Virus record (IMG/VR): IMGVR_UViG_3300047160_035999
Span: 5,059 to 69,058 of that record
Reading direction: 5' to 3' (one strand)
Length of the DNA: 64,000 nt
Source of the DNA: a virus
The translations under genes and the position numbers were made by a program. The number at the start of each line of letters is the position of its first letter. Positions within the stretch are counted from its first letter, which is position 1. Positions 35,866-63,045 of this stretch are shown here, piece by piece. The notes beneath the pieces were generated by a model. The model had not been told where the DNA came from, did no database searches, and was given only the letters and a program-made list of their open reading frames with translations.

Positions 35866-36129
35866 ATGCGTACCGTTGCCAGCATCGCCCTCGCCTGCCT
35901 TCTCTCCACCTCCGCCCTCGCGCAGCAGCCGACCGACAAGGTCAAGCTCGAGGTGACGCGCGCTGATCTCCAGATCATCGGCCAGGGTCTCATGGAACTG
36001 CCCTACAAGACCTCAGCACCCGTGCTCAATACGTTGCAGCAGCAATTGCTGGCGGCGGATCGTCCTGTCCCGCCGCCGACGCCGACCGAGCCGGAAAAGA
36101 AGCCGGCGGACGAGCCCGCCAAACAATAG
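35866..36129 (+). CDS. Small secreted protein
   Basis: Signal peptide MRTVASIALACLLSTSALA-Q. Confidence 0.6.
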   Translation: MRTVASIALACLLSTSALAQQPTDKVKLEVTRADLQIIGQGLMELPYKTSAPVLNTLQQQLLAADRPVPPPTPTEPEKKPADEPAKQ

Positions 36130-43323: not shown

Positions 43324-43668
43324 ATGCTGCGAGGACTTGCGCTTGCCCTCATCGCCGCCTCGATCCCCATGCAGGCCTGCGCCGATAGCGGCATCCGGCG
43401 CGTGGCGTGCGGCTATCAGCAGATCACCTCGCTGTCCTCGGCGCAGAAGCTGACGGTGCCGACCACATGTGGCGGACCGCCGACGCTCGCCGTCATCACC
43501 GCCGAGGCCCAGGCAGTCCGATATCGAGACGACGGAACGTCGCCGACTGCCACCGTCGGGATGCCGCTCGCGACCGGGGTCGCGCTGTCATATGAAGGCA
43601 CGCTGTCCGCCATCCAGTTCATCGAGCAGACTGCCAGCGCCAAACTGAACGTGCTGTTCTACCGGTAG
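43324..43668 (+). CDS. Hypothetical protein with signal peptide
   Basis: MLRGLALALIAASIPMQACA-D; beta-rich mature part. Confidence 0.6.
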   Translation: MLRGLALALIAASIPMQACADSGIRRVACGYQQITSLSSAQKLTVPTTCGGPPTLAVITAEAQAVRYRDDGTSPTATVGMPLATGVALSYEGTLSAIQFIEQTASAKLNVLFYR

Positions 43669-55307: not shown

Positions 55308-58300
55308 ATGACCCTGTTGAAGTCGACAGCACTCGCCGTCGCGGCGTGGGCGCTCGCGTGCCCGGCCGTGGCCATGGCGCAGAGCACCCCTAACCTGACC
55401 TATGGACAGGTGCCGACCGCAGGTCAGTGGAATTCCTACTTTGCCGCAAAGCAGGACGTGCTGGGATACGTTCCCTTCAACGCCGCCGGCGGCACGTTCA
55501 CCGGGCGCGTGGTGATGGCGGCCGCCGGTGCATCGGTTGCGGGCCTCAACATCACGCCCGGCTCGACGCCCTCCAGCCCGGCACCTGGCGACCTGTGGGT
55601 GACCGACGCGGGGTTCTTCGGCTATGCCAACGGCGTTACGTCGCCGTTTGGACTGACACCGCCGAAGCCGATCTCGGGGTTCAGCTATCAGTATTCCGCG
55701 GCCGACAACGGATACATCGTCCAGCGCTCCAATGGCGGCCTTTCGATGGTCGACATCTTGCGCGGCGACACCATCCTACCGAGCGGCGCCGTCTTCACGG
55801 TGAAGAACGACGACGTCGCCGGCCAGCTTGCGCTTTCGATATCGAACGGCGTTGTCACCGGATCCATTTCCGGAACGACGTTTACCGCCGCGTCGGGGCT
55901 GGTCGGCACCCTTGCGCCCGGGCAAACCATCGGAGGGGCAGGCTCCGGTGTCCTCGCCGGCACCACGATCGTATCCCAGCTGACCGGAACGCCGGGCGGC
56001 CTCGGGACCTATCAGGTGTCGCTCAGCCAGACGGTTGCCTCGACGAGCCTCACATTCGGCGCAACGCTGAACGGTGATCTGAACAACTATGTTCCGATCG
56101 GTCCTGGTCAGAGCGCGAGTTTCGCGTCCGACGGCGTGAACTATCGCTCGATCGGCGCTCCGCTGCGCTCCAAGTCGATCTCGACGCCATTGGGCAGCGT
56201 CACGGGATCGATCTCGGGAACGACGCTCACGGCTTCGTCTGCCCTTGCAGGCACCCTGTCACCCGGTCAGATGATCGGCAATGCCGGGTCGACTATTGCG
56301 CTGGGCACGAAGATCGTGTCGCAGCTGACCGGCACCACCGGCGGGACCGGTACGTATCAGGTCAGCATCAGCCAGACGGTTGGCTCCGGCACCATCTACT
56401 TCGGCTTCCCGACGACGCTCTTTTTCGCCGCGAGCGGCGGGTTGGACGTAAACTCGGGCGTGGACCCGTCTGTTCCGCTCGCGACGCCGCAAGGCGCGAT
56501 GAACACGCTCTCTCAGCGCTATGATCTCAGCGCCGGTTTCTTCGTCGTGCAGGCCTGCCAGACCGCCGGATCAACCTGCAACCCGCCGAGCTCGCCGCAA
56601 ACCTTCTCGGGATTCCTGGTCCGGGGCCGTCCTCTCGGCGTCGGCAACCCGCTCGGCGTGAATCCCTTCTATCACGCGATCCTCTTTCGCGGGGACCCTG
56701 CCAACACGGCGAATTACACGATCAGCGCGCCGGGCACCTGCGTGCAGGCAATTCAGTCGACGCTCATGGTCGACGGTTTCACGCTCACCTGTGGCGGCGA
56801 CGGCATCAGTGCGACGACCAATTCCATCGTCGGCGTCGGCAACATCGCCTACGGTGCCATGACTGGCAATGATATGTTCGCCGGCGCGTCGTCGTACATC
56901 CATTGGGACAACAACAGCACGAAAACCGGCGCTGCCTCGTGTCACCAGCTGGCTGCGACCGGAAGCACGATTGCTGCGAACGGTTCTGGACTTACCGAGA
57001 CCATGAGCAGTGCCGTCTGGGGCACCGGCAACTATTGCGTGAAGGAGGGAGGCACCGTCGACAATACCGGAGGCACTCAGTCCGGAACGGCGACCGGGCC
57101 AAAGTTCAACATCGGCATCGGCGGCGGATACATCGCGATTGGAACTTCTGGCGTCGATCCGAACACGCTGCTGGTCGGCAACTCGAACGGCACTTACGGT
57201 GCGACCGGGCCGGCGAACAATGTAGCCGGCCCCGGCACCTTCAACGGCCTCACGGTCTCCGGGTCGTTCAGTGCTCCCGGCCTCGTCGGCAATGCGAGCC
57301 TGACGAACGCGTCGATGACCATCAACGGCACGACCTGCACGCTGGGATCGAGCTGCAGCCCGTCCGCCGCCGCAACCTCGATCGCCAACGGCAGCACGCT
57401 GGTGACCGGCGGCACCGGGGGTCGTGTCCTGATGGACAACAGCGGCACGCTCGGCGAGTATGCGATCAGCGGCACCGGCAATGTCGCGATGACAACCAAC
57501 CCGGTGTTCACGACGCCGAACCTCGGCACGCCGTCGGCCGTCACCCTCACAAACGGCACAGGCCTGCCCACCACCGGCCTGACCGGCACGCTCCAGGCCG
57601 CGCAATTTCCGGCGCTCACCGGCGACATCACCACGACGGCTGGTGCTCTCGGCACCACGCTCGCGACCGTCAACTCGAATGTCGGCACGTTCGGCTCGGC
57701 GACCCAGTCGGGGACCTTCACCGTCAACGCCAAGGGCCTGATCACGGCAGCGGCCAATGTCACCATCACGCCGGCGGTCGGAAGCCTCACCGGCGCCGGC
57801 TCGGGCGTTCTGACCGCGCTCGGCATTGCCGTGGGCTCCGCCGGCGGGCCCGTCACCAATGGCGGCGCGCTCGGTTCGCCGTCGTCGATCGGCATGCTCC
57901 CCGCCTTCACGCTCGGCGGCACGATCTCCGGCGGCGGCAACCAGATCAACAACGTCATCATCGGCAACTCGACGCCGCTTGCCGGATCGTTCACAACAGC
58001 ATCGGCCAGCACCTCGATCACGAGCCCGATCCACTACGGCGGATCGAGCGCCGGTTCGACGCTTACGTTGCAGTCGACCTCGAGCGGCGCGCCGTCGGGC
58101 GACAAGATCCTTTTCAACGCGGGCGGCTCGACGCGCGGAACGATGCTGTCCGGCGGCAACCTCGGTTTTGGGACGGAGACCAACCCGCAGTTCCCCCTCG
58201 TTGTGAGCGCCAACACGACGACCGGCATCAACGTGTCGGGCTCCGGAAACATGGCGGTCTTCGTCAACGCCGACGGCCAACCGAGCAACTTCGCCGTCGT

Positions 58301-58802
58301 CACCTTCGCGAACAACTCAGGCAACAATCCAGGATTCATCACGTACCATGCGGAGGGCACGGCCCTCTCGCCGACGCAGTCAAAGGCGAACGACGTCACC
58401 GGATTCTTCGCGTCCAAGGCCTACAATAGCAGCCCGGGCTGGAACGGGACGCCGCAGGGCCTCGCGATCTTCGCCGGGCAGGACCAGACGTCGAGCGCGC
58501 AGGGCGGGTACGCCAAGATGCTGCTGACGCCGAACGGCTCGACCACGCGAGGCACGGTCATGCGCTGGCATGGCAGCGGCGGCGTATCGATCGTCAGCGA
58601 GAACGACCCCGGCGCCGGAGCGATGCTCCTGAAGCCGCAGACGTTCGCCAGCCTGACGACCTGCAGCGGCACGATCGAGGGCGCGATGGCGTCGGTGACG
58701 GACAGCACCGTCAACACCTGGGGCTCGACGATCGCGGGCTCGAGCACCAACCACGTCATGGCCTATTGCGACGGGACTAACTGGACGGTCGCAGCGAAGT
58801 AG
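55308..58802 (+). CDS. Large fibre/adhesin-like protein with N-terminal signal peptide
   Basis: [25 protein letters not shown]; Gly/Thr/Ser-rich; two beta modules, a beta-helix-like middle and fibre-shaft motifs. Confidence 0.75.
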
Positions 58803-59847
58803 AGAGGTGTCCACCCAAGGCTATGCATAGCGCGGCAAACCGATGCGACGCGAAGACCGCAAATCGGTTGATCGGCGCAAATGTCCCCGCAGCGGCAAAT
58901 GAGAGGGCCACGATCAGCAGATCGATGCCGACGCGCGCCGCGAGGTCGCCTGCGTGGCGCATCAGCGGCTCGCCGAACAGCACGATGACCGGGCCGTGGA
59001 TCAGATAGAGCGGGAACGATACCTCACCGAGACGCGCGGAAAGCGGGCTGGAAAGCCATGCACGTATCGGCTGCAGACAGATGCACCCAAGGGTGAACGG
59101 GATCGCTCCGAGCAGGATCGCCGCTTCGACGTTGGACGATTTGAAGGGCTGCGCCGCGCCGAGCACCAGCAGAGCAAGTCCTGTGACCGAAGGAGTCCTC
59201 TCGATCCAGCCGCGATTGTAGCAATCAGCAATTGCAGCGCCAGCAGGAAACAGGGACAGCACTTTCGTTCCGTAGGTCGGCGCGTCCAGGGCGATCCAGA
59301 GAGCAAGGATCGCAAGCACCGGAAGCCGCCATGGTGCGCGTCCGAGCGATAGGACGGCCATCAGCACGAGCACTGAACCGAAAAGCTCCGGGCCCATCGT
59401 CCAGAGCGGCCCGATATAGGTCTGCTTGAGATCGAACGCAAAGAAAACATCCCAGAGTGCGAACCGGAAGAGATGTCCGGCCGTCGGCTGGAAATCAAAG
59501 GCGAACTGAAAATTCGGCAGGCGATCATCGGGCGGCGAGACCGCGCCGAACACGAGAGCCAGGTGCATGATGAGGCAGGCCGCAAAAATCGGGATCGCGA
59601 GCCGCAAGTAACGGCCCGCGAGAATCTTGAACCAGCCCTCTAGCTGATAGGTCTCAAGATACCGCACTGTCAGCGAAAAACCCGATACGACGAAAAAGAC
59701 CAGCACGGCGAGGTTGCCGTTGAACGGCACGAACTTCTCCAGCGCCTTGAACGACGGCGCCGGCGGCAGGCTGTCGCAGAAGCAGTGATAGAGCAGCACG
59801 ACGACGGCTCCCCAGCCGCGCAGCCCATCCAAAAACCTCAACTTCAT
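58777..59847 (-). CDS. Acyltransferase-3 family (OafA/Oac-like) membrane O-acyltransferase
   Basis: FLDGLRG.....V.LYH; AV..FFVVSGF; RY.RL; GPLWT...E; LG..SFPLYL.H; about 10 TM segments; antisense to the late operon. Confidence 0.9.
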
Positions 59848-59951
59848 GAGCGCTCCAACCGGCGGTCGGAGGTCATCTAACTCGGCAACTCGCCGGTGCG
59901 CAACTCCGGCGGGCATGACCATTCGTCGGGTAATTGAGCAGGAACAGCACC

Positions 59952-60827
59952 ATGCAGCACCCTTTCGAGACGCTGAAAGACGAATATGCCCATCAGCTTA
60001 CCCTGATGGCCGTCAATCCTGCCAGGACCAAGGCCATCGACGACGCCGCGAAGAAGATCCTGAGGCCGGACAATCTCGACGTCTACACGGCCGCATGCCA
60101 GGGCACGGCCATCCCGCCGGCCTTCATCGGCGCCCTCGAGCTGCGGGAGAGCGATTGCGACCCGACCCGGGCGCTCGGCCAGGGCGACCGCTGGGACCAC
60201 GTCTCGGTGAACGTGCCGCGCGGCATGGGCCCCTTCAAGTCGCGCCTGGACGCGATGGTCTTCTATATCCACTACGATGGGCTGGACCAGAATTCGGCGC
60301 CGTGGTCGATGGAATATGCGTGCTGGAAGGGCGAGGCCTGGAACGGCTTTGGGCCGCGAGCACACGGGCGCCCGACCGGCTATCTCTGGGCAGCCACCAC
60401 GATCTACGACAAGCCCTGGGGCGAGGGCGGGAAGTACATCAGGGACAACGTCTGGTCGCCGTCGACCTATGACACACAGCTCGGCATCGTGCCCGTGTTG
60501 CAGCGCATCGGCCAGCTGCGGCCAGACCTCGCCATCGGCGCGGCGTTGCCGACCGTGGAGGCTCCGCCCGTCGTGCCGGCGCCGTCTCCCCTCCCCGTTG
60601 GCGTCGGCGGAAGCGATCTCCTCGACCTGACGGACGTGGAGTCGGTGGAGGCTCTGCAGGCGATGCTGAACGAGAAGCATGCGACGGCGGATCCTCTCGT
60701 CATCGATGGGTCGTATGGTCGACAGACCCGCGCCGCGGTGCGCGCCTATCAGGCATCACACGGCCTGACCCCGGACGGCCTGGCCGGTCCCGCCACCCTG
60801 AAATCGCTCGGCTTTATCGAAGCCTGA
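59952..60827 (+). CDS. Endolysin: lysozyme-like domain plus C-terminal peptidoglycan-binding domain
   Basis: LELRES..D; E.WNGFG...G.PT.YLW; LQAMLN...L.IDG.YG..T..AVRAYQ..HGL.PDG.AGP.T. Confidence 0.85.
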   Translation: MQHPFETLKDEYAHQLTLMAVNPARTKAIDDAAKKILRPDNLDVYTAACQGTAIPPAFIGALELRESDCDPTRALGQGDRWDHVSVNVPRGMGPFKSRLDAMVFYIHYDGLDQNSAPWSMEYACWKGEAWNGFGPRAHGRPTGYLWAATTIYDKPWGEGGKYIRDNVWSPSTYDTQLGIVPVLQRIGQLRPDLAIGAALPTVEAPPVVPAPSPLPVGVGGSDLLDLTDVESVEALQAMLNEKHATADPLVIDGSYGRQTRAAVRAYQASHGLTPDGLAGPATLKSLGFIEA

Positions 60828-61024
60828 TGCGCGCGGCCATCGTCGCACTGGCGGTCGCGCTCATCGCCGGGACGCCGCCGATCTATGGGCCACCGATGTC
60901 CGCGCTCGAGTTCTTCACCGACCCGTGGCGGTGCTTTGGCGCCGCCAGATACGAGGCGATGAGCCGCGGGCTGCAATGTCCGTTCATCCAGCGCTATCCC
61001 CCGAAACGGCGGCCGAGATCGTGA
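60827..61024 (+). CDS. Small protein with signal-like N-terminus in the lysis cassette
   Basis: TGATG-coupled to the endolysin; MRAAIVALAVALIAG; no lipobox. Confidence 0.5.
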   Translation: MRAAIVALAVALIAGTPPIYGPPMSALEFFTDPWRCFGAARYEAMSRGLQCPFIQRYPPKRRPRS

Positions 61025-61035
61025 CGGAAACCAGC

Positions 61036-61701
61036 ATGCCGTCAGATGCGCTCGTCGCCTCGCTCTGCGCAGCGATCTACCGGCCGATGGCGATCGTCGA
61101 GCTCGACCACTTCGATGCCGGCGAGGATGACGGGGTGTGCTGGGGCATCAAGCGCCTGCCCGGCTGCGATGTGGTGATCTTCCGAGGGTCGATCACGACG
61201 CTGGATTGGGTCCGCGATCTCCGCGCGCTCGCCAGCAAGACGAAAGTTGGGCACGTCCATGTCGGCTTCTACGCCGGCATGGAGCACGTCTGGAGCGATC
61301 TGCGGCCGCTGGTCAATCAGCCCTGCATCGTCGCCGGCCACTCGTTGGGTGCCGCGCGCGCGGCCGTGCTGACCGCTTTGATGGTGGTCGACGGTGCGCC
61401 GCCGGCCGCCCGCGTGGTGTTCGGTGAGCCGAAGCCCGGAATGCTCGACTTCGCGAGAATCGTCGGGACCGTTCCGGGACGCAGCTACCGCAACGGCGAC
61501 AGCCTGCATCACGACCTCGTTTGTGACGTGCCGTTCAGCTTTCCACCGCTCCAATACATGCATCCGACGCCGATCGTGCCGGTGCTGTCAAAGCCTTCCG
61601 AATCGCTCTTCGAGCGCTTCGGCGTCTTCGCCTACCACGATATCGACCTTTATCAGGCCGCGCTGTCACAAGCGTCAGCACAAGCATCACAGGAGAAGTA
61701 G
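61036..61701 (+). CDS. Class 3 lipase (alpha/beta hydrolase)
   Basis: VIFRGS, GHVHVGF, GHSLGAA (GxSxG), FGEPKPG, DLVCDVP (Asp), YHDIDLY (His); alternative GTG start at 61021. Confidence 0.85.
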   Translation: MPSDALVASLCAAIYRPMAIVELDHFDAGEDDGVCWGIKRLPGCDVVIFRGSITTLDWVRDLRALASKTKVGHVHVGFYAGMEHVWSDLRPLVNQPCIVAGHSLGAARAAVLTALMVVDGAPPAARVVFGEPKPGMLDFARIVGTVPGRSYRNGDSLHHDLVCDVPFSFPPLQYMHPTPIVPVLSKPSESLFERFGVFAYHDIDLYQAALSQASAQASQEK

Positions 61702-61702
61702 C

Positions 61703-62575
61703 GTGCCCAACAAACCGTTCTGGCTTCCCGACACCCAGGGCTTCCTCGCAACGGCGATCATCCTCTTGATCGCAGTGGTCGTCCTGATCCTGATCCTGCA
61801 TCCGCCCGTCATCGATGAGCGCACCAGCGGCGTGCTGATGACGATCGTGGGCGTGCTGATCGCGTGCCTGAAAGACGTCTATTCCTTCTTCTTCGGGTCC
61901 TCGAAGGGCTCGGAGAAGAAGGACGATGCCCTCATTTCCGCGTCGATATCGCCGGGGGCGCCGAGTGCCCCGACGTCCGTCCCTGCCGGCGGCGTGGCTA
62001 CGGCGGTCAAGGCGATGATCGTCGCCCTCGCCGTCGGTTTGACCGCGATGGTGCTCCTGCCTCAGGAAGCGATGGCCCAGGGCGGCATCAAGGTTCGCTT
62101 TCCTGATCCGCTGAAGCTGAACCAGCAGCAGGCGACAAACGACGGCGCGCCGTCCGGCCTTGCCAAGTTCATGAACGACCTCGCCGCGCTCAAAACAGAG
62201 GTCGTCGACGGCGCCGTCGCGGACCTGAATGCCGCCGACGCGGACGCTTCGACGCTCACGAATGCGTCCGACCCGACGAGCTTCCGCGATCCGATCGCCC
62301 ACGCCTGCTATCCAGCGGCGGCGAAGTTCCTGCAGTCGCTGCCGACGGCGAGCCCGCCGACCGGAACATTTGTCCTGGTGCAGCTGTTCCAGAAGAAGCG
62401 CGACTTCGTCATGCAGATCCAGGCCGGCCTGCCGACCTACCTCAAGCTCGGCTGCGCGCCGCTGCTCGGCGACGAGGCTGCGATCTTCACGAAGGTCCTG
62501 GGCCTCGTCGGCGTGAAGGTGGCGCTCTCCTCGCTCATCCCGGGCGCCGGCACGCTCGCCGGTCTGTCGTTCTAG
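61703..62575 (+). CDS. Holin-like protein with a long C-terminal extension
   Basis: GTG start; two TM segments then FFFGSSKGSEKKD holin-type motif; third hydrophobic segment ending AMA-Q; helical domain; hydrophobic C-terminus. Confidence 0.65.
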   Translation: MPNKPFWLPDTQGFLATAIILLIAVVVLILILHPPVIDERTSGVLMTIVGVLIACLKDVYSFFFGSSKGSEKKDDALISASISPGAPSAPTSVPAGGVATAVKAMIVALAVGLTAMVLLPQEAMAQGGIKVRFPDPLKLNQQQATNDGAPSGLAKFMNDLAALKTEVVDGAVADLNAADADASTLTNASDPTSFRDPIAHACYPAAAKFLQSLPTASPPTGTFVLVQLFQKKRDFVMQIQAGLPTYLKLGCAPLLGDEAAIFTKVLGLVGVKVALSSLIPGAGTLAGLSF

Positions 62576-62597
62576 CGCGGCCGAGGTGCCGAAAGGG

Positions 62598-62978
62598 ATG
62601 GCCGACAGAATCGACGGGATAAGCCACGCGATTGGCTCGCTGGAGTCGTCGGTCAAAACCCTGACCGATACCTGGCAACGCCAAGACAGGGAGGCGGCAG
62701 AAGGTCGACGCCGCCTCTACGACAAGGTCGAGGAGTTGAAGGCGCAACAGGAAGAATTGGCGCGCCAGCAGCAGGACCTGACAGGTAAACTGGCCAAACA
62801 GACCGAAGAACTCGCCGAAATCAAACCGGCCATCAAACGGTTTGAAGCGCAACGGCAGCGTGCAGAAGGCGCGCGCAGCTTGATCAAGCTGATGTGGATG
62901 GGGATTGTCGCTTTCGCGACTGGCCTCGGATATGTCGGCCACGAGCTACTGGTCTATTTCTGGCCGCCGAAACACTGA
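62598..62978 (+). CDS. Coiled-coil protein with C-terminal TM (lysis-region accessory)
   Basis: AIGSLESSVKTL coiled coil; TM LMWMGIVAFATGLGYV. Confidence 0.65.
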   Translation: MADRIDGISHAIGSLESSVKTLTDTWQRQDREAAEGRRRLYDKVEELKAQQEELARQQQDLTGKLAKQTEELAEIKPAIKRFEAQRQRAEGARSLIKLMWMGIVAFATGLGYVGHELLVYFWPPKH

Positions 62979-62996: not shown

Positions 62997-63045
62997 GAGC
63001 CCCACTGTGCCCTTCGCCGGGCCGGTGGGGCTCATTTGTTGTTTC
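62997..63045 (+). terminator. Intrinsic terminator of the late operon
   Basis: Stem GAGCCCCAC/GTGGGGCTC (62997-63005/63025-63033) followed by ATTTGTTGTTTC. Confidence 0.7.

Follow-up and report, generated by a model that had tools for sequence, protein, structure and literature searches.

A class-3 lipase gene (positions 61036-61701) was analyzed in a 64,000-nucleotide stretch of viral DNA, here called the window, which corresponds to bases 5059-69058 of the IMG/VR virus record IMGVR_UViG_3300047160_035999, a provirus record of 69,395 bp with a G+C content of 63.5% and an estimated completeness of 100% (CheckV). Judged from its sequence, the gene product is a genuine class-3 lipase with an intact active site and predicted lipolytic activity, and by gene order it fills an exchangeable "lipid hydrolase" slot in the lysis cassettes of Bradyrhizobium-type prophages. 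The lipase is a conserved resident of the lysis cassette, and synteny, natural gene fusions, displacement within the slot and cultured phages support a role in envelope degradation. We consider it probable that it would act as an accessory lipolytic lysin beside the endolysin, as an add-on to the cassette.

Conservation of the lipase within a lysis cassette

All close homologues of the lipase with enough flanking sequence (loci L001-L011, L057, and L058) were found to share the same cassette: a tail fibre gene, an endolysin gene, none to two small open reading frames (ORFs), the lipase gene, a gene for a transmembrane (TM) protein of 260-320 aa, and a gene for a protein of approximately 80-150 aa with a C-terminal TM helix. 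In the window, the last two are a 290-aa protein, consisting of a holin-like N-module and an exported C-module, and a 126-aa protein. The endolysin in these conserved cassettes varied between GH25, the type found in the window, and phrog_181, and the start/stop overlaps between genes were typically 4 bp. Among 117 neighbor proteins from 44 distinct viral loci, endolysins accounted for 17 of the 25 commonest PHROG families near the lipase. Besides, lipase homologues were found to close the lysis cassettes of Ralstonia phage Raharianne (gp58; 33% identity over 119 aa, E 2e-10) and Burkholderia phage BgManors32 (gp42). A tblastn search of the INPHARED phages with the lipase gave no match at E 1e-5, and the distant homologues from cultured phages surfaced in this collection only at E ≤ 1. 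Neither the endolysin nor the lipase contains a signal peptide or a signal-arrest-release (SAR) sequence, as expected if both are released by way of the holin; for the lipase, this confirms what the earlier note on this DNA had stated.

Natural fusions of the two enzymes were also detected. P0392 (526 aa) and P0393 (536 aa) each combine the N-terminal domain of the window-type endolysin, a PG_binding_1 domain and Lipase_3 in one signal-less protein, and in P0391 (412 aa) the endolysin N-domain is joined to the lipase. P0392 is encoded by a myovirus directly 3′ of Baseplate_J, wedge and fibre genes, and is followed on its 3′ side by a stand-alone protein of the C-module type (182 aa) with a signal peptide. 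The presence of wall-binding, wall-cutting and lipase parts in one signal-less polypeptide argues that the lipase would act, together with the endolysin, at the envelope of the producing cell itself.

In addition to these fusions, a second type of enzyme was found in the position of the lipase. Locus L066 contains a close relative of the cassette (65% identity for the endolysin, 64% for the C-module, and 61% for the 126-aa protein) without a lipase gene, and the lipase position holds an exported Cys-rich ORF of 96 aa and a gene for a 154-aa protein. The latter belongs to a family without a Pfam entry (239 relatives of about 165 aa) in which His31 and Cys122 are invariant. Its AlphaFold2 (AF2) model (predicted local distance difference test [pLDDT] 82, predicted template modelling score 0.80) was shown to match the permuted NlpC/P60 protein 3kw0 (E 4e-4, probability 1.00) and YiiX (2if6), with weaker matches to TseH, PPPDE1, and HRASLS3. 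Along the sequence, the invariant His comes before the invariant Cys, which is the order of the permuted NlpC/P60 group. Altogether, L066, L073, L074, and L075 contain such a YiiX-like enzyme of 154-179 aa in the lipase slot and keep the rest of the cassette; in L073-L075, which are on long contigs, the order is a GH25 or GH108 endolysin, small ORFs, the YiiX-like enzyme, a fusion protein of 293-348 aa, and a C-terminal-TM protein. Permuted NlpC/P60 proteins are the lipid-targeting branch of their superfamily, and for Tox-Act1 phospholipase activity has been proven (PMC3142127, PMC12994826). The strongest indication that the slot would serve lipid hydrolysis is its occupation by two lipid-ester hydrolases of unrelated fold.

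Literature searches on class-3 lipases in lysis cassettes of phages of Gram-negative bacteria yielded no study, and papers on the Yersinia type X secretion system and on Burkholderia tailocins mention lipases only incidentally.

Characterization of the lipase

The lipase matched Pfam PF01764 (Lipase_3) over aa 46-167 with 50.5 bits against a cut-off of 22 (E 2.7e-13), as well as phrog_21992, annotated as esterase/lipase (1.3e-18). In a large protein collection, 470 homologues with 57-85% identity were found, nearly all of about 220-226 aa, and the ATG at 61036 agrees with the start common to them (MPSDA...). The complete Ser-Asp-His triad proposed earlier was borne out: Ser103 (GHSLG), Asp164 (DVP), and His201 were invariant across the 18 aligned sequences of alignment A1, and their codons were located in the DNA at 61342-61344, 61525-61527, and 61636-61638, respectively. 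A moderately hydrophobic segment at aa 5-21 was considered as an N-terminal signal peptide and rejected, as this segment is conserved, belongs to the fold, and contains Arg and Pro. When a profile of the 18 homologues was compared with the PDB, the nearest solved structures were the fungal mono- and diacylglycerol lipases 5ch8 and 1tia (E 1e-9), followed by feruloyl esterase A, Thermomyces-type lipases, and plant phospholipase A1. One homologue (L054, 1599-2291) looks circularly permuted within a single 230-aa ORF, its C-terminal half (FGEPRPG...HHMQLY) being placed ahead of its N-terminal half (...GHSLGAAR); this may be an assembly artefact.

The named sources of the lipase homologues were Bradyrhizobium brasilense, B. 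oropedii, B. erythrophlei, and the strains STM 3843 and Tv2a-2. As these sources are Bradyrhizobium, the rhizobial or bradyrhizobial host that had been guessed from the sequence appears to be right.

Search for spanins in the provirus

The absence of an Rz/Rz1 pair and of a lipobox lipoprotein, previously noted for the window, was shown to hold across the whole provirus. A genome-wide search with profile hidden Markov models, which the earlier note had proposed, gave zero matches to Pfam Rz (Phage_lysis), Rz1, and DUF2514 in the 69,395 bp, and no spanin family was matched in PHROG scans of the cassette proteins. A lipobox scan of the whole provirus in all six frames and from every start codon revealed nothing credible in or near 59.9-63.0 kb; nested spanin genes such as those of LambdaSo are of the kind that such an all-start scan would catch (bioRxiv 10.1101/2024.01.23.576932). 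Furthermore, a gene-level list of the small TM proteins of the record contained none with an N-terminal TM helix followed by a coiled coil, the type of an inner-membrane spanin (i-spanin).

Two candidates were rejected. The 126-aa protein was considered as an i-spanin, and its TM helix is at the wrong (C-terminal) end. An 87-aa ORF at 35866-36129 was considered as an outer-membrane spanin (o-spanin); its Cys11 is too early, and a Sec-type ALA/QQ site is present instead. With respect to a unimolecular spanin (u-spanin), the C-module of the 290-aa protein contains a hydrophobic C-terminal tail, but its export segment ends in AMA/QG without a lipobox Cys. The combination of a lipoprotein signal and a C-terminal TM helix in one protein was found only in relatives, namely L043, Raharianne (gp57), and BgManors32 (gp43).

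The 290-aa fusion protein and the 126-aa protein

The gene downstream of the lipase had been described as a holin. Its residues 1 to approximately 80 indeed show a holin-like topology; the gene, in fact, encodes a 290-aa fusion of which the holin part is the first third, with no in-frame stop between this part and a third TM helix followed by an exported domain of about 170 aa. Within the N-module, TM helices were predicted at aa ~11-32 and 39-60 (helices 11-32 and 39-65 in the AF2 model), followed by a charged FGSSKGSEKK tail. The N-module is thus a small membrane module with at least one TM helix and a charged C-terminal tail, located in a lysis cassette, as expected of a holin. It matched phrog_9990, a 72-aa family with no assigned function (9.4e-07), and relatives of 80-170 aa occur as stand-alone proteins. 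No described holin family was matched by the N-module in Pfam, NCBIfam, or annotated PHROG families, the only matches being to the unannotated phrog_9990 and phrog_1544, and the other N-modules found fused to the C-module likewise fell into no described holin family.

The C-module is composed of a Pro/Ala linker, a third hydrophobic segment of TM or signal-like type at aa ~99-117 (..AMA/QG at 123-126), a periplasmic domain of helices that contains the invariant residues Cys202 and Cys251, and a hydrophobic Gly/Ala/Leu tail at aa ~259-290. An exhaustive HMMER search detected 431 relatives. The C-module was found by itself, in proteins of 140-220 aa that have their own signal peptide, and in fusions with three or more unrelated N-terminal TM modules. 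AF2 predicted a helical bundle with high confidence, with block-mean pLDDT values of ~75-97 for aa 150-270. A Foldseek comparison of the 290-aa AF2 model with the PDB gave no match, and an ESM Atlas feature search with the C-module gave no usable match. The holin-fused exported domain and the catalytic domain of the endolysin (see below) are predicted to be new protein families.

The C-module adjoins the lipase in 13 of about 44 lipase loci, and it is a constant member of the cassette, located beside the lipase, the YiiX-like enzyme, neither of them, or an endolysin-lipase fusion. When its profile was compared by hhalign with the lipoproteins of Raharianne, BgManors32, and L043, with L027, and with the C-terminal modules of L008, no significant homology was found, and only weak motif-level similarity was detected to L006 and L013 (P ~4e-4). 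Its likeness to the lipoproteins of the relatives is therefore confined to architecture.

The 126-aa protein contains an N-terminal coiled coil and a single C-terminal TM helix (aa ~95-113) and is XhlA-like. It matched phrog_5211 (9.2e-07) and, more weakly, phrog_1193, annotated as hemolysin (5.2e-05). C-terminal-TM homologues or analogues of this protein follow the 290-aa-type gene in L001, L002, L066, L070, L071, L073, and L075. The C-module, with or without this tail-anchored coiled-coil protein, is a candidate for an outer-membrane step or for holin regulation.

The endolysin and the small 65-aa ORF

The C-terminus of the putative endolysin contains a PG_binding_1 domain (Pfam, E 1.3e-14), and PHROG endolysin families matched this C-terminal part only. 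The N-terminal ~200 aa (59952-60560) gave no match in profile searches of Pfam, NCBIfam, or the PDB. This domain is conserved, with an invariant Glu66 and the motifs ..RE.., VP.G.GP, and WNG.G, and in L074 it fills the endolysin slot by itself (206 aa). In syntenic cassettes, the window-type endolysin holds the slot that is otherwise taken by GH25, GH108, or phrog_181 endolysins. The endolysin N-domain is probably an undescribed family of peptidoglycan hydrolases. The labels endolysin and holin are used here because of the PG_binding_1 domain, the topology, and the position of the genes, whereas the catalytic domain and the holin module match no described family.

The 65-aa ORF between endolysin and lipase contains a signal-like hydrophobic N-terminal segment (..ALIAG/TPP) and a mature part with a net charge of +5 and two Cys residues. 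The G+C content at its third codon positions is 0.83, and scans of Pfam, PHROG, and NCBIfam gave no family match. Small signal-peptide ORFs that are not homologous to each other were observed between the endolysin and the lipid hydrolase in the window, L006, L007, L057, L066, L073, and L075. Their mature part is cationic in the window, L006, and L073, and those from the window, L007, L066, L073, and L075 contain Cys.

Organization of the lysis operon

The late genes of the provirus are arranged in the order terminase, portal, head, contractile tail, and baseplate, followed by a large tail fibre gene. The subsequent lysis genes form a single, densely packed forward operon of five genes at 59952-62978 (Table 1). 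The order of endolysin, small ORF, lipase, and holin with tight or overlapping spacing, as previously reported, agrees with the coordinates and with the overlap of the endolysin stop and the start of the 65-aa ORF (TGATG); membership of the operon extends beyond these four genes to a fifth. An antisense Acyl_transf_3 gene separates the tail fibre from the lysis genes, and a likewise placed gene was observed in B. brasilense (L001). It is likely a lysogenic-conversion moron. As only about 30 bp are left between this gene and the endolysin gene, transcription of the lysis genes probably continues from the tail operon. Signal-like segments were also observed outside the lysis operon: the longest ORF of the large fibre opens with one (55308-55380) ahead of a typical fibre N-terminus, and a 114-aa ORF of the tail module (43324-43668) has a signal-like N-terminus.

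Table 1. Positions of the lysis operon, of neighboring features in the window, and of the YiiX-like enzymes found in the lipase slot of related loci.
Feature	Sequence	Position	Strand	Characteristics
Tail fibre, 1164 aa	Window	55308-58802		After the baseplate genes in the late operon
Acyl_transf_3 gene, O-acetyltransferase-like	Window	58777-59922	-	phrog_3333; between tail fibre and lysis genes
Gene 1, putative endolysin, 291 aa	Window	59952-60827	+	C-terminal PG_binding_1 (aa ~230-286); alternative TTG start at 59934
Gene 2, 65-aa ORF	Window	60827-61024	+	Signal-like N-terminus; matches no family
Gene 3, class-3 lipase, 221 aa	Window	61036-61701	+	ATG start, TAG stop; Pfam Lipase_3, phrog_21992
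Gene 4, 290-aa ORF	Window	61703-62575	+	GTG start with AGGAG just before; three-TM fusion protein
Gene 4, N-module (residues 1-~80)	Window	61703-61939	+	Two TM helices and charged tail; phrog_9990
Gene 4, C-module	Window	61940-62575	+	Linker, third TM/signal-like segment, helical domain, hydrophobic tail; 431 relatives
Gene 5, 126-aa protein (130 aa from GTG 62586)	Window	62598-62978	+	Coiled coil and C-terminal TM; phrog_5211
Terminator-like hairpin with T-rich tail	Window	63012-63033	+	Closes the operon
YiiX-like enzyme in lipase slot	L066	4110-4574		
YiiX-like enzyme in lipase slot	L073	5001-5504		
YiiX-like enzyme in lipase slot	L074	5001-5501		
YiiX-like enzyme in lipase slot	L075	5001-5540		

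Spanin-like neighbors and cassettes without a lipase

The proposal that the lipase stands in for spanins was not supported by the related loci, in which lipoproteins or i-spanin-like genes adjoin the lipase. Translational coupling links the lipase of Raharianne and that of BgManors32 to a lipoprotein of 151-162 aa with a LAAC lipobox and a C-terminal hydrophobic segment, a u-spanin-like architecture, and L043 contains a lipobox lipoprotein with a C-terminal TM helix beside the lipase, with the same architecture as Raharianne gp57. A 72-aa lipoprotein is encoded directly upstream of the lipase in L029, an N-terminal-TM coiled-coil protein plus a Pro-rich lipoprotein 3′ of the lipase were found in L031, and i-spanin-like genes are located directly downstream of the lipase in L022 and L027. 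In L068, which is without a lipase, a C-module protein is followed by an i-spanin-like gene and then a lipoprotein. Nor does the cassette appear to need the lipase, as the close relative in L066 has none.

Several points weigh against a lytic role of the lipase. The lipase is missing from five of the eight viral loci found via the C-module; together with L066, which keeps a close version of the cassette, this means that the core cassette can do without the lipase, unless a different enzyme takes its place. L059 and L061 carry the lipase plus a YiiX-like enzyme, so the two are not strict alternatives. Remote lipase homologues (<45% identity) were also found where the surroundings were not resolved into a lysis cassette. 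Release of the 24-kDa lipase through large holes is an assumption, because the presumed holin matches no described holin family. The substrate is not readable from the sequence, the nearest solved relatives being fungal acylglycerol lipases and a feruloyl esterase, and every function proposed for this lipase family is a prediction from comparison. The spanin-like neighbors, the loci without a lipase, and the loci with both enzymes suggest that the lipase is a frequent, exchangeable add-on.

Two further groups of cassette proteins were observed. Exported proteins of one family, marked by a CC-x-ADG motif and by conservation of their C-terminal part, were found in L003 (7909-8493), L066 (5841-6440), L068 (6149-6544), L071 (3277-3627), and L075 (6797-7174), and not in the provirus of the window. 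The N-terminus of the family is a signal peptide, two TM helices, or a lipobox (L068, after the i-spanin-like gene), and the family may be an o-spanin-like component. In L008 (8664-9629), L011 (8692-9633), and L022 (6801-7985), a neighbor of the lipase combines N-terminal TM helices, a signal-like segment, and a Gly/aromatic-rich domain, which in L008 and L011 ends in ..FKY or ..FLY and resembles an outer-membrane barrel. Pfam and PHROG gave no support for a beta-barrel in the C-terminal modules of these three proteins, and the resemblance is an impression only.

Proposed mechanism and alternative explanations

As an accessory lysin, the lipase would be made late and, having no export signal, would be kept in the cytoplasm together with the signal-less endolysin until a membrane lesion is formed. 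This lesion would be made by the N-module of the 290-aa protein, the presumed holin, and both enzymes would pass through it. In the periplasm, the lipase would hydrolyze ester-linked acyl chains of envelope lipids, most likely phospholipids of the inner leaflet of the outer membrane and of the outer leaflet of the inner membrane, and possibly acyl esters of lipoproteins or lipid A; a preference for the lipid A esters of Bradyrhizobium is no more than a possibility. The resulting lysolipids and free fatty acids could weaken the outer membrane and speed or complete its rupture. Type VI secretion lipases that act in the periplasm and bacteriocin release proteins, which activate the outer-membrane phospholipase A, are precedents for the opening of a Gram-negative envelope by lipid hydrolysis.

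Among the alternatives, a tentative place is given to the possibility that the exported C-module, alone or with the 126-aa protein, performs the outer-membrane step as a non-lipoprotein analogue of a u-spanin, with the lipase as a separable helper; we regard this as doubtful. The constancy of the C-module across cassettes with the lipase, the YiiX-like enzyme, neither, or an endolysin-lipase fusion points in this direction, as do its export segment, its two invariant Cys residues and hydrophobic C-terminal tail, and the true lipobox and C-terminal TM helix of the architecturally similar proteins from L043, Raharianne, and BgManors32. However, the C-module itself is without a lipobox and a fold match, no significant homology to those lipoproteins was detected by hhalign, and cleavage by signal peptidase at AMA/QG would leave the mature protein with at most an inner-membrane anchor. 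It is equally conceivable that the C-module serves the holin as a sensor or regulator in the periplasm, like the domain present in the T4 holin T.

It seems unlikely that the lipase is the sole outer-membrane disruptor, i.e., a LysB-like third step that fully substitutes for spanins and is possibly specialized for a Bradyrhizobium lipid A with ester-linked very-long-chain fatty acids or hopanoids. No canonical spanin was detectable in a provirus rated as 100% complete, the named hosts are Bradyrhizobium, and about 15% of the phages of Gram-negative hosts are spanin-less and must use other means (bioRxiv 10.1101/515445). Against this stand the homologous lipases beside u- or o-spanin-like lipoproteins or i-spanin-like genes in the seven loci or phages described above, the retention of the other cassette genes without a lipase in L066, and the exported C-module as an alternative candidate for the outer-membrane step. 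In addition, the presence of homologues in Ralstonia and Burkholderia phages makes a special lipid A less likely as a general explanation; the lipid A of these hosts is not known to have very-long-chain or hopanoid features.

A combined model is likewise thought improbable, in which Bradyrhizobium-type phages would breach the outer membrane free of spanins by a lipid hydrolase of the cytoplasm, interchangeably a class-3 lipase or a permuted NlpC/P60 enzyme, that is released with the endolysin, and by a so far undescribed exported helical Cys-pair protein, often in one polypeptide with the holin, that positions or potentiates the attack.

The lipase is very unlikely to be cargo that is freed by lysis and acts afterwards on receptors, on membrane debris or vesicles trapping the progeny, on neighboring cells, or in the plant environment: without an export signal its release would depend on lysis, and the slot is variable, with the lipase dispensable in L066, but the fusion to an endolysin with a peptidoglycan-binding domain points to the producing cell's own wall, and a function in lysis agrees better with the tight translational coupling and with the exchange of the lipase for a different small lipid hydrolase of the cytoplasm.

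For the question of how phages of Gram-negative bacteria without spanins open the outer membrane, the cassette family described here is a testable enzymatic candidate. Three unusual lines support it: the natural endolysin-lipase fusions, the occurrence in the slot of another lipid-hydrolase fold that is unrelated to the first, and the existence of cultured phages of Ralstonia and Burkholderia that are amenable to genetics. If the outer membrane were weakened from within by such enzymes, the LysA/LysB logic of mycobacteriophages would extend to Proteobacteria, and the enzymes would be candidates for the engineering of lysins that target Gram-negative bacteria. Both the exported domain fused to the holin and the uncharacterized catalytic domain of the endolysin merit study in their own right.

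Comparison with known systems

The known solutions for the outer membrane are spanins (lambda Rz/Rz1, T1 gp11) and the disruptin gp28 of phiKT, the latter being the sole demonstrated alternative to spanins (bioRxiv 10.1101/515445). Spanins act by membrane fusion and disruptin is a cationic peptide; neither is enzymatic, in contrast to the action proposed for the lipase, and none of their defining features is present in the provirus of the window.

The cassette of Wolbachia phage WO, for which a hypothetical patatin-based lytic cassette was described (PMC9203015), is similar in that an alphaproteobacterial prophage encodes a phospholipase by a holin-like gene beside the tail module and no spanins, and in both cases the lytic role is a hypothesis. 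In phage WO, a patatin-like phospholipase A2 replaces the endolysin, as the Wolbachia host has no detectable peptidoglycan, whereas the window contains a class-3 lipase, not a patatin, beside a normal endolysin.

The lipid effectors of type VI secretion systems, which include Tle lipases and the permuted NlpC/P60 phospholipase Tox-Act1 (PMC12994826), are small lipid hydrolases that are delivered to the periplasm and lyse Gram-negative cells via lysophospholipids. Both folds, the alpha/beta GxSxG lipase and the permuted NlpC/P60 fold, recur in the cassette family of the window. The effectors, however, are secreted into rivals and paired with immunity proteins, whereas the enzyme of the window is produced by the very cell that it would help to lyse.

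Raharianne gp58 and BgManors32 gp42 are homologous class-3 lipases, encoded last in the cassette after a holin-like gene and the endolysin. These genes are known from annotation alone, and they differ from the window in the coupling of the lipase to a lipoprotein, which the window is without.

The analogy to the mycobacteriophage LysB proteins that was drawn in the earlier note held for the logic but not for homology. Comparison of alignment A1 with D29 gp12 by hhalign gave a probability of 0.2% (E 0.31), and no LysB chain was present among the 28 PDB matches of the lipase profile; the window enzyme is a class-3 lipase, whereas LysB belongs to a cutinase-like family. The host would also differ, being a Gram-negative alphaproteobacterium (Bradyrhizobium) without mycolic acids as opposed to one with a mycolic-acid outer layer and a mycolyl-arabinogalactan substrate. 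The Ms6 LysB contains a peptidoglycan-binding N-terminus (PMC8309991), which is paralleled by the relatives of the window lipase that are fused to PG_binding_1. As in D29 (gp12) and Ms6 (LysB), a Ser-hydrolase esterase without a signal peptide is encoded in the lysis cassette beside the endolysin, and, as LysB acts on ester-linked lipids of the outer layer after cleavage of the peptidoglycan, a corresponding action is proposed for the lipase of the window.

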